Assembly: GCA_008932965.1 (NCBI GenBank)
Contig: WBXG01000003.1
Span: 19,193 to 51,192 of the forward strand
DNA length: 32,000 nt
Direction: 5' to 3'
Source of the DNA: Verrucomicrobiota bacterium
Lineage (GTDB): Bacteria; Verrucomicrobiota; Verrucomicrobiia; Chthoniobacterales; UBA6821
The notes under the pieces are model-generated. The model searched no databases. It was not told the DNA's origin and was given only the letters and a program-made list of their open reading frames with translations. Shown here one piece after another: positions 6,505 to 32,000 of this stretch (the stretch's first letter is position 1; each line of letters opens with the position of its first letter). The position numbers and the translations under genes are program-made.

Positions 6505-6758
6505 TTAACCCGCATATTTCATACTGGTTCGTCGTGAGGCGCCGCGAATCCAGATGCAGACACCACCGGCGGTCGGGAGACTGCGGTGGAGACTGCCCTG
6601 AAAGGGCGAGACGAGCGGGAGCAAGCGAGTCAACGAAGGTGATGGATTGCGACGACGGCTGTATGTCTCATACTGCCCGAGGAGCAATTCGAAGCTGACG
6701 CAGTATCCATCAGGTTTTCGCAAGCCGCAGCAGAATCGGTATGAAATAGGCGGGTTAA
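6505..6758 (+). mobile_element. MITE-like repeat, copy A (long variant, 254 bp)
   Basis: Ends TTAACCCGCATATTTCATAC (6505-6524) and GTATGAAATAGGCGGGTTAA (6739-6758) are inverted repeats. Central stem GGATTGC 6644-6650 / GCAATTC 6684-6690. Homologous to copies at 13139, 17244, 23673, 27664 and 31856. Carries extra GC-rich internal sequence, approximately 6545-6640, that the shorter copies lack. Confidence 0.9.
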
Positions 6759-6790
6759 CTCTTTTTGATCGTTTGATGAGAACGCTTCTA

Positions 6791-8152
6791 TTAGGGATCT
6801 GGAACAACCTTTCTTGCTTTTTCAGATGCACGTATGACATCACGGTAGTAAAAAGCAGAAGATTTTAATTTTCTTTGGAAAGTTTTTTCATCCATTGTTG
6901 CCAATCCGAATTTGGGAACATATCCGTAGTGCCACTCATAGTTATCCGCTAGTGACCAAATGAAGTACCCTTTGACATCGTATCCTTCTTCACGTGTTTT
7001 TTGAAGCTGTGCAATGTGGTCATGAAGATATTCAATCCTCTTTTGCTCATTTAAAGTGGCTATTCCATTTTCTGTAATCATCATCGGTTTATCATAGCGC
7101 TTTCCAATTTGACGAATCAGTTTCCCAAGAGCTGGTGGATCAATATGCCATCCCATCATGGTAAAATGAGTTCCACGATGACTTCCTTGAGTTAACATGC
7201 TCAGAGGACCGGCTATCTGACTGTAATAATAATTAAATCCAATGATATCACAGACGTCGTAGATTTTATCAAGATGATCAAACGCATTGTGCTCAACCGT
7301 GTTGTATATCATCCCACCAGGATCAAGTGGACCATGATACCAGTAAGGAATAGCCTCTATGCTTACAATTTTCGCATCTGGTTGGATTTCTTTAATACGA
7401 GCAGCAGCATCACGGAAAAAGTCAGCACTAACAGCAATGGCTTGTTTATAACCTTGAAAATCTAAAGTGTGATTGGGGGGCCATAAGCCCACGATGTAAG
7501 CAGTTAAAATTTGACCATTGGGTTCATTTTGAGGCGCGTAATAAGTGGCATAGGGAGCCATCTCCTGGACCATTCTAGAAACATAGCGATTCCAATGTGA
7601 GCGTGCTAAAGGATTCAACCAATTTGTATTTGCACCATTTTTTTTGTCCACCAACCAAGAAGGAAACGTAAAATGCCAGAGACAGACGTAGGGCTCAATC
7701 CCAGCTTCCTTGAGCTTCCGTACCATCGCAACATAGCGATGAATTGCTTCCTCGTTGTACTCCCCCGGACGAGGTTCAACACGGGCCCATTCAATACTAA
7801 AACGATAGGAATTAACCCCAATTTTTTTGAGTGCTTTAAGATCCTTATCAAAATGAGACCAGCTGTAGAGTGCGTTACCAACAGGAGGAGCTTTCTTATC
7901 TTGAACCAAAATATCCCAATCACGCTCAAAATATTCTTTTGTTCCCGATTTTTTAGAACGATCCTCATACTGCAAACTACTCGTTGAGATCCCCCAGGCA
8001 AAAGGGTGATAGCCACTATTTTTTGCAGCTTGATGCCTTGGTGCTTTATCAAGAGGTCCTAAAGGGTGCAATGCACAACCGGTAAGAAAAAATAAAATCA
8101 CTAATACTGAAAAAAAATAACATCGCATCGGTTTGGTTTTTAGAAATGTCAT
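6791..8152 (-). CDS. Glycoside hydrolase family 1 protein (beta-glucosidase-like) with lipoprotein-type signal peptide
   Basis: GH1 acid/base motif APQNEPNG and nucleophile motif MITENGIA. N-terminal LVILFFLTGC lipobox-like signal. The longest ORF extends to 8188, but the ATG at 8152 avoids overlap with the upstream gene (stop at 8160). Confidence 0.85.
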   Translation of the reverse strand: MTFLKTKPMRCYFFSVLVILFFLTGCALHPLGPLDKAPRHQAAKNSGYHPFAWGISTSSLQYEDRSKKSGTKEYFERDWDILVQDKKAPPVGNALYSWSHFDKDLKALKKIGVNSYRFSIEWARVEPRPGEYNEEAIHRYVAMVRKLKEAGIEPYVCLWHFTFPSWLVDKKNGANTNWLNPLARSHWNRYVSRMVQEMAPYATYYAPQNEPNGQILTAYIVGLWPPNHTLDFQGYKQAIAVSADFFRDAAARIKEIQPDAKIVSIEAIPYWYHGPLDPGGMIYNTVEHNAFDHLDKIYDVCDIIGFNYYYSQIAGPLSMLTQGSHRGTHFTMMGWHIDPPALGKLIRQIGKRYDKPMMITENGIATLNEQKRIEYLHDHIAQLQKTREEGYDVKGYFIWSLADNYEWHYGYVPKFGLATMDEKTFQRKLKSSAFYYRDVIRASEKARKVVPDP

Positions 8153-8159
8153 CTCTGTT

Positions 8160-9053
8160 TTAGTTGGAAGAGGAGATGTAGGGAACAACCTTTAATTGAT
8201 TCGCTCCATCACGGTAAAAACCGTAAAATCCTGGAAGCTTACCAAACCAATCCATCATAGATGTCTGAAGGAAATCATGATGCTGTAGCTCCCTGTTTTT
8301 TTTCAATACTCCATTTTTATTTCGAATTTGATCAAAAGGTAATGTGAGTTTTTGATATTCGGCATCATTCAAACGAGCCTTGGCAAGCCGCTCTGGATCA
8401 TAAATGGAAATCCACCATGCCCCGAATGAGTCAGATTCGGTAGGCGGCTTAATTTTAAAAATAAATTTTCCTGCACGTTTCTCTTCCCCCTTGAGGTTAA
8501 GACTATAAAAGGTAGCAAGTGCTGAACGTGAAGAAATATAACCTGCCAAAAATTCTCGTGCGAGTTCTTGAAACTTTTCTAGCCGCTCTCCCCGTGCATA
8601 GCTACCAAGCTCAACGCAGGCAGGATCCTTAGGATTTCCATAAACATTCATCTCTCCATGATTGTTCACTTGAAAGGAGAGATAAGGGACATTTTTTAAA
8701 TACCCTTCATCGATCCTGGTAGCCGGTATCTGAAAAAAAGATTTTACCATATCATTACACCTTAGGTCTTGAACCATCATTCGCCAAGGAGGAGCCTTAT
8801 CTGGGTCCACAAGATCAGCAAAGTAGACCATGCTTTTATCAGCATCATTGATACGTTGCACGGAGGCTTTATTAATAATTCGTTCTCCTAAGGACTGCTG
8901 GAGGATAATTTCTTTGGCATTACTTTTAATGATTAATCCTTCATAGCGTGTCCCATCTTTCATAATCACTAAATCAGGTAAAAGGCGGTCTAATCCATAA
9001 GAAATTCCAAAACAGGTATTCAAAAAGAGTAGTAATAAAATTATTTGCTTCAT
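8160..9053 (-). CDS. Secreted hypothetical protein
   Basis: 297-aa ORF with a signal peptide (MKQIILLLLFLNTCFG). No recognisable motif. Lies 7 nt upstream of the GH1 gene on the same strand. Confidence 0.6.
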   Translation of the reverse strand: MKQIILLLLFLNTCFGISYGLDRLLPDLVIMKDGTRYEGLIIKSNAKEIILQQSLGERIINKASVQRINDADKSMVYFADLVDPDKAPPWRMMVQDLRCNDMVKSFFQIPATRIDEGYLKNVPYLSFQVNNHGEMNVYGNPKDPACVELGSYARGERLEKFQELAREFLAGYISSRSALATFYSLNLKGEEKRAGKFIFKIKPPTESDSFGAWWISIYDPERLAKARLNDAEYQKLTLPFDQIRNKNGVLKKNRELQHHDFLQTSMMDWFGKLPGFYGFYRDGANQLKVVPYISSSN

Positions 9054-9121
9054 ATGTGATGACTTCCTTAGTTACTAGTAGTTGACTTTCATATCAAGCA
9101 TCCATCTTCACTACGAGACCA

Positions 9122-10441
9122 ATGTTAAGAATTCTCTTTTGCTTCCTCACTCTTGTTTTTTTTAGTAGCTGTGTTACTGCACCAGGCCATTATCACACAC
9201 CTGCTAACAAAGTTGTCCTGAAGCCACTTCCCAAGGAACCATTCTGGTGGGGCATCTCTACTGCTTCTTTTCAAAATGAAGATCGCGGCTATCCACGTAA
9301 CTCATCATGGTATTTTAAAACTGATTGGGATCGTTATGCCGAGGAGGGCTTAGTACCGCCGCGCGGAGATGATGCAGTTTTTTCTTGGAGTGAGTTTGAT
9401 CGAGATATAGCGGCAGCAAAAAAACTCGGAGTGAATCATTTTCGTTTCGGTATTGAATGGGCTCGTATTGAACCCCATCCAGGAGTGATTAATCATGAGG
9501 CCTTGAACCAGTACGTCTCCATGGCACGCCGTCTCAAGGCCAATGGTATTGAACCCATTGTCACTCTCTGGCACTTTACTTTTCCAGATTGGCTTTATGA
9601 TGGAAAAAAGAAAAACCAATCTAACTTTTCGCATCCTGATGTTCAAAAAGCATGGCATGCTCACATGGAAAGAACCGTCCATGCCCTTGCTCCCTACGTA
9701 CAGATTTACGTTCCACAAAATGAACCCAATGGGGCCTTGCAACTTGGATGGATTGCTGGACATTGGCCACCAGGACTTCTGCTTCATCCTATGGGTTATA
9801 AAAAAGCGATGAATACTGCAGCCTCTATGTTTCGAGATGCCGCTGCAATCGTGAGAAAAGAACGTCCTGATGCCATCATTATGGGAATTTATTCACTCCC
9901 TGAATGCAGGCGTTCCTTCACTCATGACCCTACTGCCCTTATTTACAATATTTATCAACGACAAAACTACGACCACCTCGACAAGGTTGTTGATACCTGT
10001 GACATCATTGGTGTGAACTATTATTACTCCAAAAGCTCCAGTATTCGTGAACTCTTAGTACGTCCTATGGGAGAACGAAGTTCCGAGTACACCCAGATGG
10101 GCTGGGAAATTGTCCCTGAAGGACTTTATCGGACCCTCTGTTGTATTCGTGATCGCTATCACAAGCCTATTGTTGTTTCAGAAAATGGAATTGCCACTCA
10201 AAGCGCCCAGAAATCCATCTCTTTTTTTCGCAATCACATCGCTCAAATGCGGCGTGCTATCAATGACGGAGTCGATGTTCGAGGCTATTTTCCTTGGACA
10301 CTCGTTGATAACTACGAATGGACCGAAGGATGGCATGGACAGTTTGGGCTCTTTTCCTACGATAAAAAGACCCATGAGCGCCATATCACTCCACCAGGCA
10401 TTTGGCTCAGTCGCTTTATTAAGGCATATCCCGAGCCATAA
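9122..10441 (+). CDS. Glycoside hydrolase family 1 protein (paralog) with lipoprotein-type signal peptide
   Basis: VPQNEPNG and VVSENGIA catalytic motifs. N-terminal LTLVFFSSC signal. Aligns along its length with the 6791-8152 product (for example FGIEWARIEPHPG vs FSIEWARVEPRPG, and LWHFTFPDWL vs LWHFTFPSWL). Confidence 0.85.
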   Translation: MLRILFCFLTLVFFSSCVTAPGHYHTPANKVVLKPLPKEPFWWGISTASFQNEDRGYPRNSSWYFKTDWDRYAEEGLVPPRGDDAVFSWSEFDRDIAAAKKLGVNHFRFGIEWARIEPHPGVINHEALNQYVSMARRLKANGIEPIVTLWHFTFPDWLYDGKKKNQSNFSHPDVQKAWHAHMERTVHALAPYVQIYVPQNEPNGALQLGWIAGHWPPGLLLHPMGYKKAMNTAASMFRDAAAIVRKERPDAIIMGIYSLPECRRSFTHDPTALIYNIYQRQNYDHLDKVVDTCDIIGVNYYYSKSSSIRELLVRPMGERSSEYTQMGWEIVPEGLYRTLCCIRDRYHKPIVVSENGIATQSAQKSISFFRNHIAQMRRAINDGVDVRGYFPWTLVDNYEWTEGWHGQFGLFSYDKKTHERHITPPGIWLSRFIKAYPEP

Positions 10442-10449: not shown

Positions 10450-10466
10450 GCATATTTCATACTGAT
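10450..10466. repeat. Short fragment of the repeat-family terminus
   Basis: GCATATTTCATACTGA is identical to the left-end motif of copies at 17244 and 21741. No matching partner end was found in this spacer. Confidence 0.4.
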
Positions 10467-10727
10467 TCTTAGTGAATCTCTGAGCAGCATAATGCAGTCA
10501 GAATAGTGCATGCTAATCATGGCAAGGAAGAAAGTGCCCCGCAATGCCGTTAAGGATGCTAAACCGTTCCATTAAGAAAAGGTGGATATCGCTAATCGAA
10601 ATGCTGAAGTCCAATAAAGGCATGTCATTATTTCGTCTAGTAGAGATTTCCGTAATGTTTTACATAGGTCCGGGAGCAATATATACCGGTATCTCGAACA
10701 CCGCAGGGCATAGAGATGCTAATGTAT

Positions 10728-13082
10728 CTACGATCTAACTTCAACACCTAATAGCTCCTGGAGCCGAACAATCAATCGATCACAGGCAGAAGTGACTTCT
10801 TGAGTAGTTAAGGTGCGATCCTCGTGTTGGAATGTTAATTGTAGTGTTACTGATTTTTTTTCTACTGCAATTTTCTCTCCAGTAGGATCCATAAAGATAT
10901 CAAGAGGGATGATCTTTTTAAGAAGTGGTTCTTGCGCTGCTTGGAGTTCTTTTTCAAGAAGTTCGTAGGGTACTAGCGTGTCCATTACCATTGCAAGATC
11001 ACGCGTGATGGTTGGAAGTTTTGAAAGCCCCTCCTCTTTTTTCCATGAATCACGTTCTGCGGCATGTTGAAGAGCAGTCACTTCGAGTTCAGCAACACTG
11101 AGAGAGTATTCCTGCCCTGTCACCGTGATTTTACGGGCCATTGCAGGAGCCATGAGTCCAATATATCCGCAGTATTGCCCATCACAAAAAACATCAAGCA
11201 TCCTAGCCATTATTGGGGGTAATGCTCGTACGGAAGGACGATAACTCATTTTTCCTGGAACTAAATGATCAAGGACTCCTTTTAAATCAAAGAGATCTAG
11301 CGAGCGCGGGACTTCTTCTCGCCAGGAAAGAGGGAGGGCGTTGCCGGTCATGATAAGGCCAATTAAGATCCGTTCTTCCTCTTTAGTGATATTGCCAAAA
11401 ACTTTTCCCATTTCAAACATGCGAACCGAATGTGCTCCCTGATAAAGATTATGCTTTACCACCTCTTGTAATCCGGAGATCAGGCCTGCTCTTAAAACCG
11501 ATTGTTGTTCCCCTAATGGATTACAAAGCCTCAGAGCCTCAGAGGAAGAGCTCTCTAGTGGAACTAAGGCACTGGTACGGGCTTCATAAAAACCACTAGC
11601 AATCAAACGCCGACGCAAAAGCATCATAAAATCATGGATCTTATCGGTTGGACTTGAAGGAACAGAAAAACTTAACGTACGAGCCTTGATCGATTCCAGC
11701 CCGTAGAGACGGGCGACTTCTTCGATGAGGTCGATTTCACGCGTGAGGTCGAGACGCCACGGAGGGATTTGCCACCCCGTGTCACAGGAAAAGAGTCCAA
11801 ATTTTTTTAATAGCAAAGAAATTTCTTCATCTTGAAGAGAAATTCCAAGCAGCTGACGACAACGATCGAAGCGAAAGAGGACCTCAGTTGGCAATAGCAT
11901 TTCTCCAGCGATGCTAACTTCATGAGATGCTACAGCGCCTGAAATTTCAATGATCATAGCAGTAGCACGTGCTGAAGCTTCTCTAGCATTATCTGCCTGA
12001 GAACCCCGTTCAAAACGATAGGAAGCATCGGTTGCTAATCCATGAGCACGAGCAGAAGCGCGAATCATGCTAGAATTAAAAACAGCACTTTCCAATAAAA
12101 TGGATTTTGTCTCTTTGGTAACGCTACTTTCAAGACCACCAATAATCCCTGCTAAGGCTTGAGCCCCCTTTTCATCGGCAATCACCAGATCAGAAGATCG
12201 TAGTAAATATGTTTTTCCATCGAGCAAGCTTATCTTTTCTCCCTCCGTTGCAAAACGAACCGTGAGTGCTCCTTGAATTTTATCAGCATCAAAAGCATGC
12301 AGCGGATGCCCCATTTCCATCATTACGTAATTTGTAACATCAACGATATTGTTGATACTTCTTAATCCAATCGCCTCAAGGCGTTGTTGTAACCATGAGG
12401 GGCTAGTCTTGACTGCAGTATTGGAAATAGAGCGTAAGCTATAGAAGGAACAAGCATGAGAATCTTCAATAGCAGCACGAGAACTCTCTTTTTTTACTAA
12501 TGGGAGTATCACCTCATTGCGAAAAAACTCCCCAGCTCCGAAAGCTGCAGCTTCACGAGCCACACCAACATGTCCTAACCAATCTGGACGATTTGGAGTG
12601 ATTTCTAACTCCAAAATTGTATCACTTGGAAACAGCGCGCCAAACTCAGTCCCAATAACGGTCTTAGGATCGAGAATATGAAGCCCTTCCCCCCCTTCTC
12701 CTAGCCCAAGTTCTTTTGCACTACACATCATTCCTTCACTCTCTACTCCGCGAAGCTTACCCACTTTAATTTTGATTCCACCTGGAAGAACCGCTCCCGG
12801 TAGGGCAAGGAGCACTTTATCTCCTACCTTGTAATTTTTAGCACCACACACAATCTGACGTGGAACTCCACTTCCCTCATCGACCTTACAGACACACAAG
12901 CGATCAGCATTAGGATGCTGTTCCGAAGAGAGAATCTGAACAACGATCACACTAGCAATGCTAGCTCCGGAGGTAGTGATCGACTTCACTTCGATTCCAG
13001 AGCGTGTTAACGTTTCTGCTAGCGCTTCTGCGGTTTGCGTTGTTTTAAGATAATCGTGGAGCCACGAGAGAGAGATTTTCAT
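10728..13082 (-). CDS. pheT: Phenylalanine--tRNA ligase beta subunit
   Basis: 784-aa ORF. N-terminal MKISLSWLHDYL and the tRNA-binding, B3/4, B5 and C-terminal anticodon-binding layout typical of PheT. Lies downstream of pheS. Confidence 0.95.
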   Translation of the reverse strand: MKISLSWLHDYLKTTQTAEALAETLTRSGIEVKSITTSGASIASVIVVQILSSEQHPNADRLCVCKVDEGSGVPRQIVCGAKNYKVGDKVLLALPGAVLPGGIKIKVGKLRGVESEGMMCSAKELGLGEGGEGLHILDPKTVIGTEFGALFPSDTILELEITPNRPDWLGHVGVAREAAAFGAGEFFRNEVILPLVKKESSRAAIEDSHACSFYSLRSISNTAVKTSPSWLQQRLEAIGLRSINNIVDVTNYVMMEMGHPLHAFDADKIQGALTVRFATEGEKISLLDGKTYLLRSSDLVIADEKGAQALAGIIGGLESSVTKETKSILLESAVFNSSMIRASARAHGLATDASYRFERGSQADNAREASARATAMIIEISGAVASHEVSIAGEMLLPTEVLFRFDRCRQLLGISLQDEEISLLLKKFGLFSCDTGWQIPPWRLDLTREIDLIEEVARLYGLESIKARTLSFSVPSSPTDKIHDFMMLLRRRLIASGFYEARTSALVPLESSSSEALRLCNPLGEQQSVLRAGLISGLQEVVKHNLYQGAHSVRMFEMGKVFGNITKEEERILIGLIMTGNALPLSWREEVPRSLDLFDLKGVLDHLVPGKMSYRPSVRALPPIMARMLDVFCDGQYCGYIGLMAPAMARKITVTGQEYSLSVAELEVTALQHAAERDSWKKEEGLSKLPTITRDLAMVMDTLVPYELLEKELQAAQEPLLKKIIPLDIFMDPTGEKIAVEKKSVTLQLTFQHEDRTLTTQEVTSACDRLIVRLQELLGVEVRS

Positions 13083-13138
13083 CAGAGAATGAATTATTGG
13101 ATTGTATAGTCAAATTACTTAGAAATTACATGAACGGG

Positions 13139-13299
13139 CTAACCCGAATATTTCATCCAGATCTACTACGGAAGCCGGGAAGCCAGATGGATGCTGGGCA
13201 GTATGAGCCCTACCGCCCCAATCACAATTCGAGAGCAACGTAGTAGCCATAGAGCGTTACACAAGTCGTAATAAATGGAGTATGAAATATTCGAGTTAA
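13139..13299 (+). mobile_element. MITE-like repeat, copy B (161 bp), in the pheS-pheT spacer
   Basis: Ends CTAACCCGAATATTTCAT and ATGAAATATTCGAGTTAA. The left arm CTACGGAAGCCGGGAAGCCAGATGGATGC is the reverse complement of the arm seen at 17037-17065. The core GCTGGGCAGTATGAGCCCTACC...ATCACAATTCGAGAGC is shared with copies F and G. Confidence 0.9.
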
Positions 13300-14366
13300 A
13301 ACTCCCCAGCAAATCGTTTTAAAAATCGAAGGTCATTTTCGCTGAGCATCCGAATATCAGAAATCCCAGTTAGGATCATGACAAGGCGCTCCAAGCCAAA
13401 TCCAAAGGCGAAGCCTGAAATCTTTTCAGGATCATAGGCCTGATCACTACGTTGTTGATTCACTGCCTCAAAAACGGAGGGATCGACCATACCGCAGCCA
13501 GCAAGCTCTAGCCATTTTTCCTCCTTGAGAAACTCAGCTTTGAAAGAAGCAGGAGTGCATTTTGAAGCTAAGAAAGCAGGCTTAACGCGCACATCGATTT
13601 CAAAGCTTGGCTCAGTAAAAGGGAAAAAATGCGGCCGAAAACGACATTCTGTCTCGGGTCCAAATAACTCACGAAAGAAAAACTCAGCCGTTCCTTTTAA
13701 ATCTCCAAGGGTAATGCCCTCTCCCACGCAGAGAACTTCCATTTGAGTGAATTGAGATAAATGGGTTGCATCAATTTCATCACGTCGGTAGGCCGCCCCA
13801 GGGGCTATGATACGCAAAGGTGGTGATGTTTGTTCCATCGCCCGAATCTGAACAGTGGAGGTATGCGTCCGTAGCAGGCGTCCATCAGGAAGATAAAAAG
13901 TATCTTGCTCCTGACGTGCAGGATGATCAGGCGGGGTATTGAGGGCATCAAAGCAATGCCACTCATCATCGATATCAGGTCCTTCAGCTATCGCAAAACC
14001 GAGACGACGAAAAATCTGTACGATACGATTGGTAAGAAGGGTGAGTGGATGTAGAGCCCCTTGCCATGAAGCTGTTCCTGGCAAGCTCGGATCCAGTGAC
14101 GCAAAGGAAGCTTCATCAGCTTGATCCAGGAGCATTTTTTCTTTAGCCTCAAGAACCTCGGTAAAGCTATTTCTCCATTGGTTTAGGAGTTGTCCTATCG
14201 CAGGTCGCTCCTCCTTGGAAAGAGTACGCATTTGCTCACTTAAGCAAGAAATAGCACCACTCTTTCCAAGATAATGAAGACGTACCTCTTTAAGCGCAGC
14301 AGCATCAGAAGCTGTTTTAATGGCAGCTAAGGAAGCATCTTGTTGTTGTTGAATCAAAGATTTCAC
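13296..14366 (-). CDS. pheS: Phenylalanine--tRNA ligase alpha subunit
   Basis: 356-aa ORF with a GTG start. Class II aaRS motifs (FRPHFFPFTEPS, GFAFGFGLERL) and a C-terminal NDLRFLKRF typical of PheS. The TAA stop (13296-13298) lies inside the terminal TTAA of repeat copy B. Confidence 0.95.
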   Translation of the reverse strand: MKSLIQQQQDASLAAIKTASDAAALKEVRLHYLGKSGAISCLSEQMRTLSKEERPAIGQLLNQWRNSFTEVLEAKEKMLLDQADEASFASLDPSLPGTASWQGALHPLTLLTNRIVQIFRRLGFAIAEGPDIDDEWHCFDALNTPPDHPARQEQDTFYLPDGRLLRTHTSTVQIRAMEQTSPPLRIIAPGAAYRRDEIDATHLSQFTQMEVLCVGEGITLGDLKGTAEFFFRELFGPETECRFRPHFFPFTEPSFEIDVRVKPAFLASKCTPASFKAEFLKEEKWLELAGCGMVDPSVFEAVNQQRSDQAYDPEKISGFAFGFGLERLVMILTGISDIRMLSENDLRFLKRFAGEF

Positions 14367-14458
14367 GCAAAAGCACGGTGATTGAAAAAGCTATTTTCAA
14401 CTTCTAGAAACTATTTTAGTGGTGGAGGCCGAGATGCTCACGCACTCTCTTCTCTCCA

Positions 14459-14830
14459 CTAGCTACTATGCTTTGCAGCTAATGATGCTTTCACCTTCGA
14501 AACAATCTCAAGAAATGTCTTTTCATCAGTAATAGCGATGTCGGAAAGAACTTTTCTATCGAGAAGAATATTGGCTGCCTTTAATCCTTCAATAAAGCGA
14601 TTGTAAGTCAAAGATTGGGCACGGACAGCAGCATTGAGACGTGTGATCCAAAGTGCACGAACATTACGTTTCCGCGTTTTACGATCACGGTAGGCCCAAT
14701 ATTTGGCTTTCATCCGTGCATCTTTAGCATAGCGGAACAATTTGGAACGGCGACCGCGATAACCAGCGGCTTCATCGATAACCCGCTTGCGGCGTGCGCG
14801 ACTAGCTGGTGAATTAGTGGCTCTAGGCAT
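14459..14830 (-). CDS. rplT: 50S ribosomal protein L20
   Basis: 123-aa basic ORF. MPRATNSPASRARRKRV... and the YRDRKxRKR motif typical of bL20. Confidence 0.95.
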   Translation of the reverse strand: MPRATNSPASRARRKRVIDEAAGYRGRRSKLFRYAKDARMKAKYWAYRDRKTRKRNVRALWITRLNAAVRAQSLTYNRFIEGLKAANILLDRKVLSDIAITDEKTFLEIVSKVKASLAAKHSS

Positions 14831-14838
14831 TGTATGTT

Positions 14839-14859
14839 CTCCTTGCTTTTAGCAAGGAG
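14839..14859 (-). promoter_or_regulatory. Stem-loop sequestering the rplT Shine-Dalgarno sequence
   Basis: Perfect 9-bp stem CTCCTTGCT (14839-14847) / AGCAAGGAG (14851-14859) with a 3-nt loop. On the mRNA strand the 3' arm contains AAGGAG 8 nt upstream of the rplT ATG. Confidence 0.4.
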
Positions 14860-15221
14860 CCTCGTCGAGCAGGCTGTTTGTTATTCATGATTCAGGAACT
14901 CACCTGCTCGGCTAGAATATTCAAAATGAACATTCAGATCCATGAATCGGTTTTATTTGTTTGGTTCCTTCGTCAGAAAGAACTGAACAAATGTTTAGGG
15001 ATTTAAAAGATTAAAGGTTTAGGTGATCTCATGTCATCTCAATTCTTCTAAAAAATGGAATTAAAATTTAAATCAGCATGTTGATTGTCTTAGAAAGACG
15101 CTGAGGCAAATGAAAAACAAGAAGTGGCAGCACTCAGCAATCAAGTGCACATGAAGTACTCGAGGAAGCGAGCACCGACACGACATAGTTTCTCGCTGCA
15201 TCAACAGAATTTATGAGGGAA

Positions 15222-15431
15222 TCAACCCCAGGGAAGGTTAAGCTTGATACGACTAACATCACAATCTTCAACGATTGCTGACTTGCCCATGTTACGTTTC
15301 AACTTAGAACTCTTACACTCCAATAAGTGACGACGACCAGCTTTAGAGCGCTTGACTTTCCCTGTTGCAGTGATTTTGAATCGCTTGGCAACAGACTTTT
15401 TAGTTTTACTACGGGCAATGGGTTTAGGCAT
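15222..15431 (-). CDS. rpmI: 50S ribosomal protein L35
   Basis: 69-aa highly basic ORF. MPKPIARSKTKKSVAKRFKITATGKVKR... is typical of bL35. Confidence 0.93.
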   Translation of the reverse strand: MPKPIARSKTKKSVAKRFKITATGKVKRSKAGRRHLLECKSSKLKRNMGKSAIVEDCDVSRIKLNLPWG

Positions 15432-15486
15432 GGGTCGGGAAATTTAACAAAGAGAGTTTATCCTGACAAGAGTTAAAATATTTTTT

Positions 15487-17043
15487 TTAATAGGCTATCT
15501 TGGGTTTAAATGTAGCCGCTTCTTTTGAAAGCAGATGACCTGTGACTTTACCAGGAGCCCCCAGGCTCTCTTGTACTACTTTTGATGATGGTGCGGTCGA
15601 TCCTACCGCTAGTGCCAGGGCTGCTAGTGTTGTAGAATAATCAGAGACAGCTGTTGCTAATTCTGATTGTGCTAAACTTAAATTACTTCCCGCCTCAGAA
15701 TAATCGGTCACATTTGCAAGTCCTGTTTCTGTTGCAGCACTAATAGAACGAAAGAATTCATTTGCTGATGCAACAAACCCTTCTGCGTACCCGACTCTCT
15801 CTGCAGCCGCAAGACTGTTATTATAAGCAGTCCAAACATCACGCGTTGTATCAAGTTGCGTCTCTCTTAATTTTTGTTCTGCCACTTTGTCCTCCTCTTG
15901 ACGACGCTTCATTTTAAAGACACGATCAAATCCATCAAAGAGATCCCAATGTGCCGTTACATAAGCACTTCCGTAGGGAACACCCACTCCATTAAAGTAG
16001 CCATTAGCAGTAGAGTTGGGTTGAAAGCCCTGATATCCAAACGTTGTATTAGCATATTGACTTTCTATTTTAATGGTTGGGAAAAAATCAGACATGGCTC
16101 TTTTTGTTGCTTCTTTACTGGCTTTAAGCTCCTGCACTCGTGCTGCAAGATCAGGACGCAAGCGGAGAGCTTCTTGAATCAGTTCATTGGCATCACCACG
16201 TAATTTTTTTGTGGAGGGAGGTTTTTCTGATTCCACAAACTCCAATGGACTATTTGCAGGAATGCCGACAGTGATACAGAGCTCTCCTAATGTATTGCGC
16301 ACAACGGCAATTGCGGACTCTACTTCATATTGAGATTCGAGAACACGTTTACGTGCTTTTAATTCCTCGGGGTCTGCAGTGAGTCCGGTAACTCTTTGAC
16401 GAACAATCATGTCACTTAATGTTTGAGTAAAAACAAGATTGGCTTCGGCTGCTTTTTTCTTCCAAAGGGCTGCTTCATATGAAAAATAATTTTTTTGAAC
16501 ATTAAAAATGACCTCTTGTAATGTACGTTGATAAGTAAGTCCTAGGGCGTGAAAAATTGCGATCGTACGCTGCACATCAGCATCCCTTCTCCCAAAATCA
16601 AGCAAGATATATTCCATGCTTAAAAAAACGGTAGCCTGAGTGCGATTTGCTCCGTTGGGTCCTGTTACAGGGATAAGATAGGATTGATCGTATCCCCCCA
16701 CAAAATCGGATCGTACCCAGGGATAATAAAGAGAACGAGCTTCCCCTACCGATGCAGAGGCTGCTTTGGCCTGACTCCATGCAGCCCGAGTCATAGGATT
16801 ATTTTTGAGAGCTAAATCAATAAGGCTTCCCAAGTGATACTTTTCATTAGGATGAAAAGCAGCAGCTAAGGCCGCTTCATGAGAAATAAAACTTTTATCT
16901 TTAGGAGAAGAAAATAAATTTTTGCCCGAGGGATCGATGACTTCTACCGCAAAGACAGGGGAAAAAAATGCCGCAACGATCAAAAGAAATAGGGATTTTT
17001 TATACCAATCACCTACGGAAGCTGGAATGCTCGAAGCATCCAT
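15487..17043 (-). CDS. TolC-like outer membrane efflux protein (OMF family)
   Basis: Two-repeat OEP architecture with long alpha-helical, coiled-coil-like segments. A signal peptide (KKSLFLLIVAAFFSPVFA) follows the ATG at 17043. The longest ORF starts at 17112. Both candidate starts lie in repeat-derived sequence. Confidence 0.8.
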   Translation of the reverse strand: MDASSIPASVGDWYKKSLFLLIVAAFFSPVFAVEVIDPSGKNLFSSPKDKSFISHEAALAAAFHPNEKYHLGSLIDLALKNNPMTRAAWSQAKAASASVGEARSLYYPWVRSDFVGGYDQSYLIPVTGPNGANRTQATVFLSMEYILLDFGRRDADVQRTIAIFHALGLTYQRTLQEVIFNVQKNYFSYEAALWKKKAAEANLVFTQTLSDMIVRQRVTGLTADPEELKARKRVLESQYEVESAIAVVRNTLGELCITVGIPANSPLEFVESEKPPSTKKLRGDANELIQEALRLRPDLAARVQELKASKEATKRAMSDFFPTIKIESQYANTTFGYQGFQPNSTANGYFNGVGVPYGSAYVTAHWDLFDGFDRVFKMKRRQEEDKVAEQKLRETQLDTTRDVWTAYNNSLAAAERVGYAEGFVASANEFFRSISAATETGLANVTDYSEAGSNLSLAQSELATAVSDYSTTLAALALAVGSTAPSSKVVQESLGAPGKVTGHLLSKEAATFKPKIAY

Positions 17044-17091
17044 CTGACTTCCCGGCTTCCGTAGGTAATCGCGATGAAATATCCGGGCTAG
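17012..17091 (+). repeat. Partial repeat-family copy C (right arm plus inner part of left arm)
   Basis: GCATCCATCTGACTTCCCGGCTTCCGTAGGTAATCGCGATGAAATATCCGGGCTAG matches the arm at 30884-30941 and the reverse complement of 13139-13190. There is an internal perfect 11-bp inverted repeat, 17012-17022 / 17055-17065. A further terminus fragment GAATATTTCATACT lies at 17102-17115. Confidence 0.75.
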
Positions 17092-17243
17092 AACAATGAG
17101 TGAATATTTCATACTTCTTGATTCATTAATGAGAGGTCATTGAAAGAGCGATGTGCTAGAAAAATATCAATTTTTTTGCCGGTTCTTTCAAGAGTGAACC
17201 ACCAGATAGACTTAAAACATAAAGGGATCCTTCTGTGGTAACA

Positions 17244-17359: not shown

Positions 17360-17493
17360 TCATGAAAATTTAAATTGGTCATCAAGCTAAATCTTATTTA
17401 CCCTTCAACTTCCACGACAGCTACTTTTAAATTGGTACCCCCTTAGAAAATCTATCAGTTTTTTTTCTGTATTCCCCCATTAAAACCATTCCC

Positions 17494-21023: not shown

Positions 21024-21650
21024 TTAGAATGCTCTAGATAAGTTCTTCCAACCTCGAATTACCATCTGAGACCATGTCTCAAATTCTTCAATCTTTTCAA
21101 GTAGTTCCTCATACGTAAAGAATCCCAATTCAGCGATCGCTGCTTCCCTCGCTGATACATCCTCTGAAAGAAGAGCACAATGGTGGATCACTCCAAGATG
21201 AACTGCCCCGACAGGATTGGAATCATCATTTAGGAGAGCAATGGGTTTGATGGGAGTTGTGGAAAGAAAAGAAAGTAAATTCAACTCTTCTTGGAGCTCC
21301 CGCCGCAAGGCTCGCTCATAAGCTGCTGCATCGAAGTGGCTCCCTTCACTATCTTCATCGTTGATATGTCCTCCAATACCGAGAGAACGTTTTTTCAAAA
21401 GACGCTTCTCCCCAGAGCCACTCCCACGTTGATATTGAAGAATACGATCACCACAGGTAAGCACAATATAAGGAATAATCTGCTTAAAAGCAGGATCCTC
21501 TTCTGCCTTCGTCCGTGGTAAAAAAGAGTGATGAAGGGGATTTAAGAAAAGGGGCAAATAATCTTCAATGTTGGAATGAAGCCCCTGAAAGGAACCTAAC
21601 TGATCAAAAAGAGAACGAGGGATCACCAAAACTTTTTCTTGAGAACTCAT
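21024..21650 (-). CDS. NUDIX-fold protein with atypical Nudix-box spacing
   Basis: 208-aa ORF. GGHINDE...RRELQEELNL resembles GX5EX7REUXEEXGU but has a longer spacer. Confidence 0.45.
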   Translation of the reverse strand: MSSQEKVLVIPRSLFDQLGSFQGLHSNIEDYLPLFLNPLHHSFLPRTKAEEDPAFKQIIPYIVLTCGDRILQYQRGSGSGEKRLLKKRSLGIGGHINDEDSEGSHFDAAAYERALRRELQEELNLLSFLSTTPIKPIALLNDDSNPVGAVHLGVIHHCALLSEDVSAREAAIAELGFFTYEELLEKIEEFETWSQMVIRGWKNLSRAF

Positions 21651-21740
21651 AAATCGAGAAGCCTAATGATTAACTCATATTTGAAAAGTTTAAAAGAATA
21701 CCGATGCGAAATGCCCTGTTGCCTCATAAGTTTTGATACT

Positions 21741-21780
21741 CTAGCCCGCATATTTCATACTGAAGTGTCATGAGGCGCTA
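21741..21780. repeat. Truncated repeat-family copy E (left arm only)
   Basis: 21742-21778 is identical over 37 nt to 17245-17281 (TAGCCCGCATATTTCATACTGAAGTGTCATGAGGCGC). Similarity ends at CTAA (21778-21781), which contains the mutL stop codon. Confidence 0.85.
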
Positions 21781-23616
21781 ACACCGAAATTTTTGCTCTA
21801 TCTCTGCTTCTGAAAACTGAAGCATGGTTGGGCGTCCTGAAGGAGTAGCATAAGGAAATTCACATTTTATAAGATCGCCCAAGAGCATCATTGCAGTTGT
21901 CTCGTCATAGGCTATTTTTTGGGCCTTTGCGGTCATACGACTTATTGAACGAGCAAGGGCCTCTTCACTCATCCTGATTCCTTGAAGGACTGGATCTTTG
22001 GTTTTGGCCTCTTCACTTTGGATATCACTCATGAGCTCATGCACGAGCTGTGTTACTGGGACCTCTTTGAGCAATACTGGAATTGTGTCAATCTTGATAC
22101 TTTTACTAGCATGTCCTGTGGCTCCTTGTCCAAAAGCCTCAACTTCTAAACCTGCTTTTTCCAAAAAAGCCTGATGCGCCATGATCCAGGCACATTGAGA
22201 AGCCGAAACCTCAATGATTTCAGAAAGCAGAAGCTGTTGACGTTCCAACATCCCAGAAGCCAATGAGCCTTTCAACCTCTCATAGGTAATTCGTTCTAAT
22301 GCTGCACGCACCTCAACAAGAGTAAAACCATCCCCTTCCTCCAGCACAAAATAGCGCTCTGCGATTGATCCCACATAACGATATGGGGGGGGTTCACAAG
22401 AACCTGATCCCTGATGCTCCAAAAGTGCATCGGCAGAGGGCTGTTTATTTTGATCCTCTGTTTCAGGAGGAAAAGAGATATTTTTTTCTTGTACAAAAGT
22501 GGAACCATCTTCAACCAATGCAGGTTGAATCACAGGCAAAAAGGGGTGTACAGCATCAGATCTTACCATCGAATAGGGCCTGCCCATTTCTTGCAGTGGC
22601 AGAGGAGTGGTCACTCGAGCATAGTTTCCCATGACTTCTTGAGCAGCACGCAAGAGAGCTACCTTGATCTTTCCTGGCTCTTGAAAACGAACTTCTCGCT
22701 TCGCAGGATGCACATTACAATCGACTATCGCAGGGTCCATTTGAAAAAAAAGAACCGCCTGCGGATGGAGTCCTTTAGGCAAAATACCATCACAGGCTTC
22801 ACGCAACCCCATTGATAAAAGAGGACTACGCACCATGCGTCCATTGATAAAAAAAAGTTGTTGAGAGCGATCAGAACGGCCCTCCCCAGGTCGGGCTAAA
22901 AAACCATGAACGTTGATTTCCTCGACCTCGATGTGTTGGACTTCAGTCATACCTTGTAAAAAAGAGCTTCCATACAAATCACGTAAACGTACTGCTAATG
23001 AATTTGTAGCTGCTAAGCGAAATACCTCTCGTTCTTCATGGAGGCAGGTGAAGGCAATCTCGGGATGGGCAACAGCTAATATTTGAAGCTGTTCAAGAAG
23101 ATGTGCCGTCTCGGTCTTTTCACTTTTTAAAAATTTACGTCGTGCAGGGACATTATAAAAAAGATCCTTAACCTCAATCTGAGTGCCATAAGCTTGTCCA
23201 GAATCAGAAACACCGACGATTTTTCCTCCATCAACAATAACCTCAGTTCCAGCAAGAGAGTCCTCCGTACGAGGACGTGTGCTCAAACGAAAACGAGAAA
23301 CACTTGCAATACTGGGGACCGCTTCTCCTCGAAACCCAAGGGTTCCAATCACAGAGAGATCTTCTAGCGTTCGTATTTTACTCGTAGCATGACGTTCTAA
23401 CGATAAAAGAGCATCGGAGCGATCCATGCCACAACCATCATCGCTGATTCGAATCACTTTAAGGCCACCCTGAGCGAAGAGGACTTCAATACGTTGAGCT
23501 CCAGCATCAATGCTATTCTCAACAAGTTCTTTTAAGACCGAAGCAGGACGCTCAACAACTTCCCCAGCCGCTACCTGACTAGCTACAAGATCACTTAGAA
23601 GACGAATAGAACCCAT
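21778..23616 (-). CDS. mutL: DNA mismatch repair protein MutL
   Basis: GHKL ATPase N-terminus IRLLSDLVASQVAAGEVVERPASVLKELVENSIDAG, starting at the ATG at 23616. The longer TTG-initiated ORF to 23691 runs into repeat copy F. The C-terminal dimerisation domain is present. Confidence 0.9.
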   Translation of the reverse strand: MGSIRLLSDLVASQVAAGEVVERPASVLKELVENSIDAGAQRIEVLFAQGGLKVIRISDDGCGMDRSDALLSLERHATSKIRTLEDLSVIGTLGFRGEAVPSIASVSRFRLSTRPRTEDSLAGTEVIVDGGKIVGVSDSGQAYGTQIEVKDLFYNVPARRKFLKSEKTETAHLLEQLQILAVAHPEIAFTCLHEEREVFRLAATNSLAVRLRDLYGSSFLQGMTEVQHIEVEEINVHGFLARPGEGRSDRSQQLFFINGRMVRSPLLSMGLREACDGILPKGLHPQAVLFFQMDPAIVDCNVHPAKREVRFQEPGKIKVALLRAAQEVMGNYARVTTPLPLQEMGRPYSMVRSDAVHPFLPVIQPALVEDGSTFVQEKNISFPPETEDQNKQPSADALLEHQGSGSCEPPPYRYVGSIAERYFVLEEGDGFTLVEVRAALERITYERLKGSLASGMLERQQLLLSEIIEVSASQCAWIMAHQAFLEKAGLEVEAFGQGATGHASKSIKIDTIPVLLKEVPVTQLVHELMSDIQSEEAKTKDPVLQGIRMSEEALARSISRMTAKAQKIAYDETTAMMLLGDLIKCEFPYATPSGRPTMLQFSEAEIEQKFRC

Positions 23617-23672
23617 AAAGAGAAAGGGTAAAGCGTCAAGGTTAAAGCGTAAAGAGTTGTTTAAACTATCCG

Positions 23673-23857
23673 TTAGCCCGCCTATTTCCAACTAATTGTG
23701 ACGAGGAAGCCGCGAAGGCTGATGGGATAAGGCGAATGAAGGATTGTGATGCTGGGCTGTAGAAGTCCCTATCACCTCAATCACCATTCAAGACCAATGC
23801 AGTAACAATGAGCTTTCCACAAGCCGTAATAAATTTAGTATGAAATATGCGGGTTAA
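23673..23857 (+). mobile_element. MITE-like repeat, copy F (185 bp)
   Basis: Ends TTAGCCCGCCTATTTCC... and ...GTATGAAATATGCGGGTTAA. Central stem GGATTGTGAT 23741-23750 / ATCACCATTC 23780-23789. The right half is near-identical to copy G. Confidence 0.9.
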
Positions 23858-27663: not shown

Positions 27664-27828
27664 TACATATTTCGCCCACTTCAAGCAAAACTTTACTGCA
27701 AGACGCTCCAAGGATTGTGATGCCAGGCTGTATGAGTCCCTACCAACAAAATCACAATTCGAGACTAATGCAGTAATGATGAGCTTTCCACAAGCCATAA
27801 TAAATTTAGTATGAAATAGGCGGGTTAA
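27664..27828 (+). mobile_element. MITE-like repeat, copy G (left arm degenerate)
   Basis: 27710-27828 aligns closely with 23739-23857 (copy F), including the stem GGATTGTGAT 27712-27721 / ATCACAATTC 27751-27760 and the terminus GTATGAAATAGGCGGGTTAA. Upstream only a weak CATATTTC remnant (27666-27673) marks the left end. Confidence 0.8.
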
Positions 27829-30296: not shown

Positions 30297-30881
30297 TTGA
30301 AACACGAAGTATCATTATCAATTTTAAAAATAACTATTACTCTTTTCATGATTCCTCACACATTGCTACTACTTTTATTATTAGAAATAGCGACTGTATC
30401 ACTCAGCGCAGCTGAGACAGCAACCTCAGCTATTCAGGCGCTCAGTGATTCAGGCCGACCTAACATGATGTCTGCAGTAGTAGAGATCAGGGGGGCTCAT
30501 GGAGAGCCACAACCCGAGGAATGGGTCATCATTTGCAATGATCCTACGGCACAAGGAGGAATCCGTGAATTAACGATCAAAGATCATCATATTATTTCCG
30601 AGCGAACACCTCTTTGTAGTTTTGAGGGTCAAGGGTCTTTACCGCAGCTTGACACTACTCGTATTACCATGGATTCCGGAACGATTTTTAAGGCTGCTAA
30701 TACCGAGGCAAAAAATCATCGTATTGGATTTGACGCTCTTACCTACACCATAAGAACGGACGCACTTACGGGCAAACCTCTTTGGATTGTACAACTTTAT
30801 AAAGCCGAGAAAAATGATGAACGGCTTGTTGGAACATTACAATTCTCTCCAGAAACGGGAGCTCTTATTAAGGGACTCTAA
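30297..30881 (+). CDS. Secreted hypothetical protein
   Basis: 194-aa ORF (TTG start at 30297, alternative ATG at 30348) with a hydrophobic N-terminus (LLLLLLLEIATVSLSA). No motif recognised. Its TAA stop lies in repeat copy H. Confidence 0.5.
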   Translation: MKHEVSLSILKITITLFMIPHTLLLLLLLEIATVSLSAAETATSAIQALSDSGRPNMMSAVVEIRGAHGEPQPEEWVIICNDPTAQGGIRELTIKDHHIISERTPLCSFEGQGSLPQLDTTRITMDSGTIFKAANTEAKNHRIGFDALTYTIRTDALTGKPLWIVQLYKAEKNDERLVGTLQFSPETGALIKGL

Positions 30882-30941
30882 TGCAGCATCCATCTAGCTT
30901 CCCGGCTTACGAGGGTGATCGGGATGAAATATCCGGGTTAA
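30878..30941 (+). repeat. Partial repeat-family copy H (right arm)
   Basis: CTAATGCAGCATCCATCTAGCTTCCCGGCTTACGAGGGTGATCGGGATGAAATATCCGGGTTAA aligns with 17037-17091 and with 31977-32000. Confidence 0.8.
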
Positions 30942-31837
30942 CTCTTGTCATCCTTGCTGCGGGAATGGGAAGTCGATATGGAAAATTGAAGCAACTTGAC
31001 CCTGTGGGACCAGATGGTGAAGCGCTCCTTGATTACTCCATTCATGATGCTGTACAAGCTGGTTTTGGAGAAATCGTTTTCGTAATTAGAAAAGAAATTG
31101 CACACCTCTTCGAGGACCATATTGCGAGTCGCTACGCAAAACAGTATCCAGGAATTACGATTCGTTTTGCTTTCCAAGAACTCAAGGATCTTCCAAAACC
31201 ATTTTCACTTTCTAGAATGCGCTCGAAACCTTGGGGTACGGGCCATGCTCTTCTTGCGGTGCGTCATTTGGTGACCTCAGCTTTTGTGGTTATTAATGCT
31301 GATGATTATTACGGCCCATCAGGTTATCTCCTCTTAAAAGATTTCTTATTACAACTCTCTCTCTCTATTTCAAATGGTGAACAGGATCAAAATAGGTATG
31401 CCATGGTTGCTTACTTGCTAAAAAACACGCTCAGCGAGCACGGTAAAGTCTCTCGAGGAGTTTGTAGGGCCACACAAGATTATTTCATGATTGATATTAC
31501 CGAACAGACCTCGATTCATAAAACAGCTGAAGGAATCGTCTCTGATAACAAAGAGGGTTCTAGCATCATGCTCACGGGTGAAGAATGGGTCTCGCTTAAT
31601 TTTTGGGGATTTACTCCAGCTATTTTTTCATTTTTGGAGAAGGAATTTACTGATTTTTTAACCTTCCATTTAGATGATCCAAAAGCGGAGTTTTATCTCC
31701 CTTCAGTTGTGAACAAAATGATTCATGAAAAAAGTGCTTCCGTAAAACTCCTTCCATCACAAGACCCGTGGTTTGGCCTTACGCATCCTTCGGATTTAGT
31801 GCATGTCAAGAATGCTCTCCTATCTCTGAGAAATTGA
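30881..31837 (+). CDS. Sugar-phosphate nucleotidyltransferase family protein
   Basis: 318-aa ORF with the N-terminal LVILAAGMGSRYGKLKQL glycine-rich NTP-binding motif. The first ~20 codons are repeat-derived. Confidence 0.75.
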   Translation: MQHPSSFPAYEGDRDEISGLTLVILAAGMGSRYGKLKQLDPVGPDGEALLDYSIHDAVQAGFGEIVFVIRKEIAHLFEDHIASRYAKQYPGITIRFAFQELKDLPKPFSLSRMRSKPWGTGHALLAVRHLVTSAFVVINADDYYGPSGYLLLKDFLLQLSLSISNGEQDQNRYAMVAYLLKNTLSEHGKVSRGVCRATQDYFMIDITEQTSIHKTAEGIVSDNKEGSSIMLTGEEWVSLNFWGFTPAIFSFLEKEFTDFLTFHLDDPKAEFYLPSVVNKMIHEKSASVKLLPSQDPWFGLTHPSDLVHVKNALLSLRN

Positions 31838-31855
31838 TCCGAAGAGATATGCGGG

Positions 31856-32000
31856 CTAGCCCGGATGTTTCATACTAATCGTGACGAGGAGGCCGCGAAG
31901 GCTGATGGGGTAAGGCAGGCGAGTATTTTGATGCAGGGCTGTATGTGTACATACTGCCCAAATCAAAATGGGAGTCTAACGCAGCATCCATCTGACTTCC
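31856..32000 (+). mobile_element. MITE-like repeat, copy I (cut by window end)
   Basis: Left end CTAGCCCGGATGTTTCATACTAATCGTGACGAGGAGGCCGCGAAGGCTGATGG resembles copy F. Central stem ATTTTGAT 31925-31932 / ATCAAAAT 31962-31969. The right arm begins CTAACGCAGCATCCATCTGACTTCC, as in copies C and H. Confidence 0.85.

Follow-up and report, generated by a model that had tools for sequence, protein, structure and literature searches.

The DNA analyzed here, referred to as the window, is a stretch of 32,000 nucleotides with 43% GC from contig WBXG01000003.1 (positions 19,193 to 51,192) of assembly GCA_008932965.1, which belongs to an uncultured member of the Chthoniobacterales in the phylum Verrucomicrobiota. 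It includes pheS and pheT, mutL, two glycosidase genes, a gene for 6S RNA, and open reading frames (ORFs) for a TolC-like and a nucleotidyltransferase-like protein; between these genes, or at their extreme edges, lie the members of a family of short repeats. An initial annotation, made from the sequence alone, described the family as a non-autonomous element resembling miniature transposable elements with inverted repeats (MITEs) or repetitive extragenic palindromes (REPs). From the analyses presented here we consider, with a probability of about 0.85, that the repeats are copies and remnants of a MITE that would be moved in trans by a transposase of the IS1380 family of insertion sequences (ISs) with the same termini.

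Results

The repeat family in the window

The terminus TARCCCGNNTATTTCATACT (20 nt, up to three mismatches) had 13 matches in the window and none in 100 dinucleotide-preserving shuffles. An nhmmer profile was made from 54 full-length copies (53 from other genomes and the window copy E6), and with it ten copies or fragments were found that add up to 3.7% of the window length, none of them within positions 1-6500 (Table 1). Two of these are full length, one with an insert; one is shortened, one is cut by the window end, one is rearranged and one is 5'-truncated, and the others are two right-end fragments, one left-end fragment and a weak remnant. Repeat detection gave direct and inverted families at each position where the initial annotation had reported related sequence, and the all-against-all comparison of nine window copies revealed common termini and a few arm modules in both orientations; together with the profile, these results account for all the reported positions. 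The two short terminus fragments that had been reported fared differently: 10450-10466 is part of a longer remnant, and 17102-17115 has no profile match beyond the core of the inverted repeat.

The copies had been described as richer in GC than their surroundings and almost exclusively intergenic. This was found to be so: their GC content is 42-58%, compared with 35-47% in the 100-nt flanks, with the remnant at 10450-10501 as the sole exception (38.5%, flanks 45.5%), and every copy is placed between genes or at the extreme 5' or 3' edge of an ORF, a placement that selection against gene disruption explains. In agreement with the initial annotation, tblastn with the IS1380 transposase described below detected no transposase in the window. 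In a search of the window against Rfam the 6S RNA gene was the only match and no copy of the family was hit; one full copy used as the query gave no Rfam match even at E <= 1.

Anatomy of the element

The alignment of the 54 full-length copies yields a consensus of 176 bp with 52% GC that is an imperfect palindrome. Its terminal inverted repeats, of 16-17 bp, are CCCGNATATTTCATAC...GTATGAAATATNCGGG, and CCCGNATATTTCATAC is conserved to at least 90% at both ends (53 copies). Two diverged arms, approximately the reverse complements of each other, extend from the termini to a conserved apex (GGCTGTATG..CATACTGCC), and no transposase is encoded in the interior. The arms are of a few diverged types that are combined in a shuffled fashion, and the copies have a definite orientation. 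Size variants span 60-290 bp and include mini-versions of 60-115 bp as well as a longer form, about 254-265 bp, whose interior contains a GC-rich insert. This form is common to several species: it is represented by the window copy E1 and, among the loci from other assemblies (numbered with the prefix L), by L078 4603-4865 and the right end of L025. The idea that an element folds back on itself over its full length applies well to the consensus, which as single-stranded DNA forms one long imperfect hairpin (-41.7 kcal/mol, z = -6.9), and to E1 (z = -4.9), and weakly to E2 (z = -2.1) and E6 (z = -1.5, hardly better than shuffles).

Copies in other genomes

A terminus scan that covered one genome per species listed at least 98 stretches, nearly all from metagenome-assembled genomes (MAGs) labelled Chthoniobacterales or Spartobacteria (Verrucomicrobiota); many come from one MAG labelled Phycisphaerales, and some from a few other MAGs of the Planctomycetes-Verrucomicrobia-Chlamydiae (PVC) group. 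In 99 loci plus the window we counted at least 311 termini and at least 115 inverted pairs; measured from TA to TA, the sizes peak sharply at 182 nt, which equals 176 bp plus 3 nt of each YTAR. In pieces chosen for containing a match, the profile counts per MAG were at least 63, 63, 27, 13 and 7, and copies are abundant in at least five Chthoniobacterales MAGs of 42-44% GC. The strong expansion proposed from the window thus extends well beyond it, and the family is spread in uncultured freshwater and soil Verrucomicrobia.

Three loci from two Chthoniobacterales MAGs show synteny with the window, their nucleotide identity to it being 67-84% (Table 1). The metagenome contig L001 (JGI) is 100% identical to window positions 16078-21157, and therefore no polymorphism is shown by it. 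An exact look-up of the window protein encoded at 9122-10441 gave no match.

The MAG labelled Phycisphaerales (CAZIUL01; L012, L018, L021, L022, L024, L039, L044 and others) has 54% GC and its own subfamily of 172 bp, whose copies are mostly 90-96% identical to each other, one being nested in another. This similarity and the nesting suggest recent activity in this MAG; if its label is not wrong, the family is present in more than one phylum of the PVC group.

Target-site duplication and insertion sites

The ends of the element had been given as YTAR-CCCG inverted repeats. The inverted repeat does begin at CCCG, and the four flanking nucleotides behave differently. In 66 of the 96 elements that are flanked by TA at both ends, the 4-mer on the left is the same as that on the right, and the outer base on one side equals the inner base on the other in 75 and 82 of the 96. 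Identical pairs that are not palindromic are direct in 15 cases (CTAA/CTAA, 9; TTAG/TTAG, 3; GTAG, GTAA and ATAA, 1 each) and inverted in 0, and the inverted pattern CTAA/TTAG occurred in no pair among these 96 elements. The target most often used is TTAA, followed by CTAG, and tandem or adjacent copies have one YTAR in common. YTAR is thus a 4-bp target-site duplication that lies outside the inverted repeat, the element proper being CCCG...CGGG.

The same limits are given by a filled and an empty site, a check that the initial annotation had proposed. In L054 (CAIWMF010000021.1) the sequence TTAA-[176 bp]-TTAA is found within pheT at 3793-3974, and the pheT gene of the window (10728-13082, minus strand) is uninterrupted at about 12522-12527, so that the alignment gap is exactly 180 nt (176 + 4). 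Related genomes thus differ in the presence or absence of copies. The 4-bp direct duplications and this 180-nt gap therefore exclude a TA-duplicating element of the IS630/mariner type. In L021 and L091 one copy is nested in another; the joined flanks of L021 match other copies at up to 96%, and the nested copy of L021 has an imperfect duplication (ATAG/CTTG). Most candidates from an automated search for empty sites were nested copies, and the pairs L041/L017 and L078/window align well on one flank only.

IS1380-family elements with the same termini

The initial annotation had recommended a search for a complete IS bounded by the same termini. Some terminus pairs were widely spaced, four of them 1.7-2.4 kb and one 5.1 kb apart, and among these we found full-length ISs in L014 and L086 (Table 1). 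They are 1.7-2.1 kb long, have CTAG/TTAG duplications and the termini of the MITE, and their proteins match Pfam PF13701 (DDE_Tnp_1_4, E = 7.7e-130) and NCBIfam NF033539 (IS1380 family transposase, E = 1.6e-103), both above the curated cut-offs. The same terminus, next to CTAG or TTAG, was found at three further ends, in L182, L181 and L032. In L016 and L025, the pairs spaced 2.4 kb and 5.1 kb apart were considered as ISs or composite transposons and rejected, as what lies between these separate elements is ordinary genes.

The subgroup of the partner transposases comprises at least 120 metagenome clusters at 75% identity or more, mostly on contigs of about 2 kb, one of them bearing the name IS1380 family transposase (Opitutus sp.). 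A plasmid of Pseudomonas putida carries an annotated IS1380-family copy (L100) that has CTAG followed by CCCGCATTTCTCACAG at both ends; the transposase of this copy is 48.7% identical to the partner protein, and the partners are less than 49% identical to any protein in the plasmid collection. Because this plasmid copy has them too, the CCCG ends and the CTAG/YTAR duplication are properties of this IS1380 branch. The two copies in L086 (126-4001) are arranged head to tail, 13 nt apart, with transposases that are 80% identical; the contig L086 is 4 kb long, and its binning to a gammaproteobacterium (Sulfuricaulis) is doubtful.

Copies in frame within genes of relatives

Element plus TTAA amounts to 180 nt, or 60 codons, with exactly one stop-free frame per strand, and the encoded peptide reads LTRIFHTD...QYEI[CS]GL. 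The statement that the repeats encode no credible protein holds in the window and is not valid for the family, since the consensus frame is found in frame in genes of relatives: eight copies, none of them in the window, lie deep within long ORFs in this frame (Table 1), and in six of these ORFs, which include glycosyltransferase-like membrane proteins, Pfam domains were matched. The commonest insert length is 180 nt and 52 of 105 lengths are divisible by three; given that the copies are not independent, this is no proof of selection. About 43% of the copies have at least one open frame, which by a rough estimate is near the neutral expectation, and we claim no selection on intergenic copies.

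Individual copies in the window

In E1, consensus positions 1-51 and 49-176 are split by a 67-nt GC-rich internal insert (6561-6627); this copy has 58% GC (flanks 40%) and the only perfect target-site duplication in the window. The internally shortened E2 lies in the pheT-pheS spacer, and its orientation is ambiguous, with profile scores of 62.7 on the plus strand and 54.5 on the minus strand. E3 retains a degenerate left arm at 16993-17031. E4 consists of TTAG, one left arm (consensus 1-68), a second left arm that is inverted and of a different type (consensus 6-47, minus strand), and TTAA. E5 terminates exactly at the mutL stop codon (reverse-complement TAG, 21778-21780), and its positions 21742-21778 are identical in 37 of 37 nt to 17245-17281 in the left arm of E4, 4.5 kb away in a family that is otherwise diverged, which suggests a recent conversion, recombination or deletion event. 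The canonical copy E6 is placed between the divergently oriented mutL and the next gene; E7, which is without a left terminus, is 87% identical to it over 119 nt.

Two ORFs are probably over-extended at their starts through copies of the family. E3 is in the 5' extension of the TolC-like ORF (15487-17112, minus strand), upstream of the likely signal peptide, and the fragment probably adds about 35 residues before it; the gene call of L001 uses this extended start. E8 is at the junction of two ORFs on the same strand, and its open frame lengthens the 5' end of the downstream nucleotidyltransferase-like ORF (30881-31837, plus strand), probably by about 20 residues before the LVILAAGMGSR motif.

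All window copies that can be oriented score best on the plus strand regardless of the direction of the neighbouring gene (6 clear, 2 weak, 2 ambiguous). In the syntenic relatives six of eight copies are oriented as in the window, and in other loci pairs within one locus are mixed. The one-sided orientation in the window may be due to chance. Along the window there is a steady fall in cumulative GC skew.

The remnant at 10450-10501 is just downstream of a glycoside hydrolase family 1 (GH1) gene and adjoins, at about 30 nt, the 6S RNA gene (Rfam RF00013, 10532-10712, minus strand; 55.4 bits, full length), which is situated between pheT and the GH1 gene; in a related MAG the interval from the 6S/pheT side to the GH1 gene is longer by about 6 kb, and a very large ORF is contained in this additional DNA. 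The two GH1-family beta-glucosidase paralogues (6791-8188, minus strand, and 9122-10441, plus strand) are divergent and flank an ORF of 297 residues; both are below the equivalog cut-off for BGL.

Table 1. Positions of the window copies, the insertion sequences with the same termini, the in-frame insertions and the syntenic loci
Feature	Position	Strand	Description	Basis
E1	TTAA 6505-6508, element 6509-6754, TTAA 6755-6758 (total 6505-6758)	+	Long variant, full length with insert	Profile, terminus matches
Remnant	10450-10501	+	Decayed left-end remnant (consensus 4-55) without the CCC start	nhmmer E = 0.009, direct repeat, synteny
E2	CTAA 13139-13142, element 13143-13295, TTAA 13296-13299	+	Shortened	Profile, repeats, terminus matches
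E3	16993-17091	+	Right-end fragment (consensus 121-176, 17032-17087) and CTAG 17088-17091	Profile, repeats
14-nt fragment	17102-17115	+	Isolated fragment GAATATTTCATACT of the inverted-repeat core	Direct repeat
E4	17244-17359 (profile part 17248-17355)	+	Rearranged, 116 bp	Repeats, profile, terminus matches
E5	21741-21778	+	CTAG and left-end fragment (consensus 1-32)	Repeats, terminus matches, profile (21745-21778)
E6	TTAG, element 23677-23853, TTAA (total 23673-23857)	+	Canonical full length (consensus 1-176)	Profile E = 2.5e-38
E7	27697-27828	+	5'-truncated (consensus 50-176, 27697-27824) and TTAA 27825-27828	Repeats, profile
E8	30874-30941	+	Right-end fragment (consensus 113-176, 30874-30937) and TTAA 30938-30941	Repeats, profile
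E9	31856-32000	+	CTAG and consensus 1-141 (31860-32000), ended by the window edge	Profile E = 3.4e-39
Full-length IS	L014 4913-6719		Pedosphaerales MAG	CTAG and CCCGGATATTTCATAC-type ends
Full-length IS	L086 126-1886		Contig binned to Sulfuricaulis; transposase ORF at 347-1825	CTAG and CCCGGATATTTCATAC-type ends
Full-length IS	L086 1900-4001		Contig binned to Sulfuricaulis	CTAG and CCCGGATATTTCATAC-type ends
Insert in PheT	L054 3793-3974		Between the tRNA-binding and B3_4 domains; 849-codon ORF open	Pfam
Insert in GlnD	L046 3868-4049		Between the HD and ACT domains	Pfam
Insert in PBP1A-like protein with transglycosylase domain	L033 289-551		After the transglycosylase domain; long variant, 89 residues	Pfam
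Insert in orotidine monophosphate decarboxylase (pyrF)	L087 4455-4636		N-terminal to the domain match (from profile position 18 onwards)	Pfam
Insert in PMT-type glycosyltransferase	L063 273-454		Flanks the matched domain	Pfam
Insert in TMEM260-like protein	L029 744-925		Flanks the matched domain	Pfam
Inserts in two ORFs	L060 90-271, L091 1173-1354		In frame; one ORF of 1194 residues	No Pfam domain found
Syntenic locus	L091		Window 6864-10440	67-84% nucleotide identity
Syntenic locus	L054		Window 10533-15984	67-84% nucleotide identity
Syntenic locus	L078		Window 19598-23670	67-84% nucleotide identity

Apparent age and decay of the family in the window

A perfect duplication is kept by one of the four end-to-end copies in the window, and six of the ten pieces are truncated or rearranged. 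At two sites where the window has remnants, copies in relatives are intact: L078 carries two full-length copies (2217-2390 and 2442-2617) downstream of mutL, at the site of E5, and L091 has one of full length (3705-3884) and a partial one downstream of the GH1 gene. Because of the few perfect duplications, the many truncations and these intact copies, the family looks old and decaying in the genome of the window; the identity of E6 to the consensus is 69.5%, compared with up to 89% for copies in relatives. Upstream of mutL, the window and L078 each carry a copy; the two differ in type, and their positions differ by about 70 nt, suggesting that each was inserted into this spacer independently.

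Discussion

The elements described here are small and without transposase, have inverted ends and a target duplication, are dispersed in many copies, and have their termini in common with an autonomous element, as is characteristic of a MITE. The shared termini, the 4-bp duplication, the filled and empty sites, the nested and tandem copies, and the presence of many copies in several genomes are observed directly. With respect to an IS1380 origin, the partner transposases are of this family, and CC ends with a 4-bp duplication were found; in the ISfinder family description, IS1380 ends begin with CC and the duplication is of 4-5 bp. According to the mechanism that we propose, a full-length IS with the same termini would supply an IS1380-family DDE transposase in trans, which would bind the inverted ends of the MITE and insert it at YTAR, most often TTAA and then CTAG, the YTAR becoming duplicated on both sides. 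We infer the mobilisation in trans and the chemistry of cutting and joining, and the genome of the window would have, or once have had, a matching transposase.

Several observations weigh against this interpretation. The similarity between the MITE and the ISs is confined to about 19 nt from each end and the interiors are unrelated; this pattern therefore does not indicate an internal deletion of the IS as the origin of the MITE. In the window and in the analyzed loci from low-GC Chthoniobacterales MAGs, which carry most of the copies, no IS1380 transposase bounded by such ends was found; the partners were found in GC-rich (58-68%) Verrucomicrobiota, in Sulfuricaulis and in unbinned metagenome contigs, and the absent low-GC partner is the main gap in the argument. 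The initial annotation had looked to presence/absence polymorphism among related strains, and at strain level it was not obtained in a metagenome scan with MutL: the one close relative found (L101, MutL 69% identical) is rearranged on both sides and therefore offers no clean empty site. Finally, the model does not predict that the copies in the window should be oriented to one side.

The alternative that survives best is that of a structured non-coding RNA or regulatory hairpin family conserved by the host, whose mobility would be incidental or long extinct. It would agree with the folding of the consensus, far better than that of shuffles, with the co-variation of the sub-terminal positions 17-25 between the two ends, and with the presence of copies in divergent promoter regions and operon spacers, several of which recur in the same spacers of related species. 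However, when 53 copies were analyzed with RNAalifold, only the inverted-repeat helix and a small apex helix were kept, with a covariation term of -1.8 kcal/mol; this outcome, a result of the shuffling of the arm types among copies, makes no case for a conserved RNA structure. Moreover, E6 and E2 fold little better than shuffles, the insertion points in shared spacers are about 70 nt apart, copies are found in either direction relative to the neighbouring genes, and no Rfam family was matched. For these reasons we regard this alternative as improbable; individual copies may have been exapted.

Two other kinds of element deserve very little credence. A MITE of the Tc1/mariner-IS630 type would duplicate TA only, and its inverted repeat would start with the flanking R/Y, as is the case in Correia or Stowaway-like elements. 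That every end reads TA and that tandem copies overlap by at least TA are expected from such an element, and the majority of palindromic TTAA and CTAG sites is compatible with both models; the decision comes from the agreement of outer and inner bases across the two sides, from the non-palindromic 4-mers, direct in 15 cases and inverted in none, from the pheT gap, which is 176 + 4 and not 178 + 2, and from the full-length partners, which encode IS1380 and not IS630 transposases. Similarly remote is the reading of the repeats as REP/BIME-like palindromes, kept by a REP-associated tyrosine transposase (RAYT) of the HUH class or by the host for the stabilisation or termination of transcripts. Although the copies are palindromic, richer in GC than their surroundings, mostly intergenic and very abundant, their length of about 176 bp is far above the 20-40 bp given for REPs in PMC3733652, they are without the GTAG/CGTC head, their ends are clearly inverted and flanked by 4-bp duplications, which REPs lack, they occur in frame within genes, and the same ends bound IS1380 elements with a DDE transposase. 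In addition, promoter- and terminator-like sites in the window are no more numerous than in shuffles, and none coincides with a copy. The first part of the MITE/REP-like designation is therefore the one to be retained. The least probable explanation is that each copy arose by an independent deletion in place within a full-length IS1380 element, with which only the identity of the termini agrees, whereas more than 50 copies in several genomes have one 176-bp interior and length, unrelated to the IS interior beyond about 19 nt.

We therefore prefer the IS1380-mobilised MITE, and its relation to known systems is as follows. Like IS1380-family ISs such as IS1380 and ISEcp1, the element starts with CC(CG), is flanked by a 4-bp duplication (CTAG/TTAG) and has the same first 16-17 nt, but it is about ten times shorter, lacks a transposase and has nothing in common with them beyond the termini. 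Like those of the MITE, the ends of piggyBac, a transposon of eukaryotes, begin with TTAA followed by CCC, and TTAA is its preferred 4-bp duplicated target; the differences are that the targets described here are relaxed to YTAR and that the host is bacterial. Precise excision is the hallmark of piggyBac. The IS1380 transposases have been used as the prokaryotic outgroup of piggyBac (PMC10813416). With Correia, ERIC, RUP, Nezha and QMITE1/2 the family shares a small size, many copies, hairpins, inverted ends, duplications, a mostly intergenic placement and some fusions to ORF ends, and it differs from them in the termini, the target (YTAR, 4 bp) and the partner family. A relation to the Coxiella QMITEs was considered on account of the 43% GC and the 6S RNA gene, and was discarded, as sizes, repeats and host do not fit: QMITE1 is 300-400 bp long with repeats of 2-3 nt, and QMITE2 is 150-190 bp long with repeats of 7-11 nt and a GTAG REP (PMC5896051).

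In a 2024 review of prokaryotic MITEs, IS1380 is nowhere mentioned. Our literature search found no description of an IS1380-derived or Chthoniobacterales MITE, and blastn against plasmid and phage collections found no similar DNA. Together with the Rfam results this agrees with the opinion of the initial annotation that the repeats belong to no named family, and the family appears undescribed. As a MITE the kind of element is ordinary; some habits of the family are unusual.

One of these habits is the insertion in frame. Rickettsia palindromic elements (RPEs) are palindromic peptide insertions found in frame within housekeeping genes (PMC10969869). As in RPEs, palindromes of about 150-180 bp with a stop-free frame occur in frame in unrelated housekeeping genes, here in relatives only; unlike those of RPEs, which are obligate intracellular bacteria, the hosts are free-living Verrucomicrobia, and the elements differ in that their ends are clearly inverted, their targets are duplicated and the family of their transposase is identified. 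We consider this a resemblance in behaviour and, the host being a member of the Verrucomicrobiota, do not claim membership. It is tempting to go further and view the family as a selfish element that is coding-tolerant in the manner of RPEs, has colonised essential genes (pheT, pyrF, glnD, a PBP1A-like gene), and owes its spread to an IS1380 transposase related to that of piggyBac, with TTAA/YTAR targets; such an element might excise seamlessly; this we put forward only as a tentative and rather doubtful idea. If the open frame and the length were under selection, no earlier system of this sort would have had its transposase identified, and this one would lie outside obligate intracellular bacteria.

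Conclusions

This work defines the ends, the target and the probable transposase of an abundant repeat in widespread uncultured Chthoniobacterales of freshwater and soil, which should be an aid to the assembly, binning and annotation of their genomes, given that copies probably lengthen several ORF starts in the window artificially. With IS1380, a relative of piggyBac in bacteria, it would enlarge the set of families by which MITEs are driven, and the TTAA/YTAR target strengthens the parallel with piggyBac. The in-frame insertions in essential genes of relatives may provide a second natural system, beside Rickettsia, in which to study the tolerance of proteins to selfish DNA, and since the transposase is identifiable, this question would be experimentally approachable.

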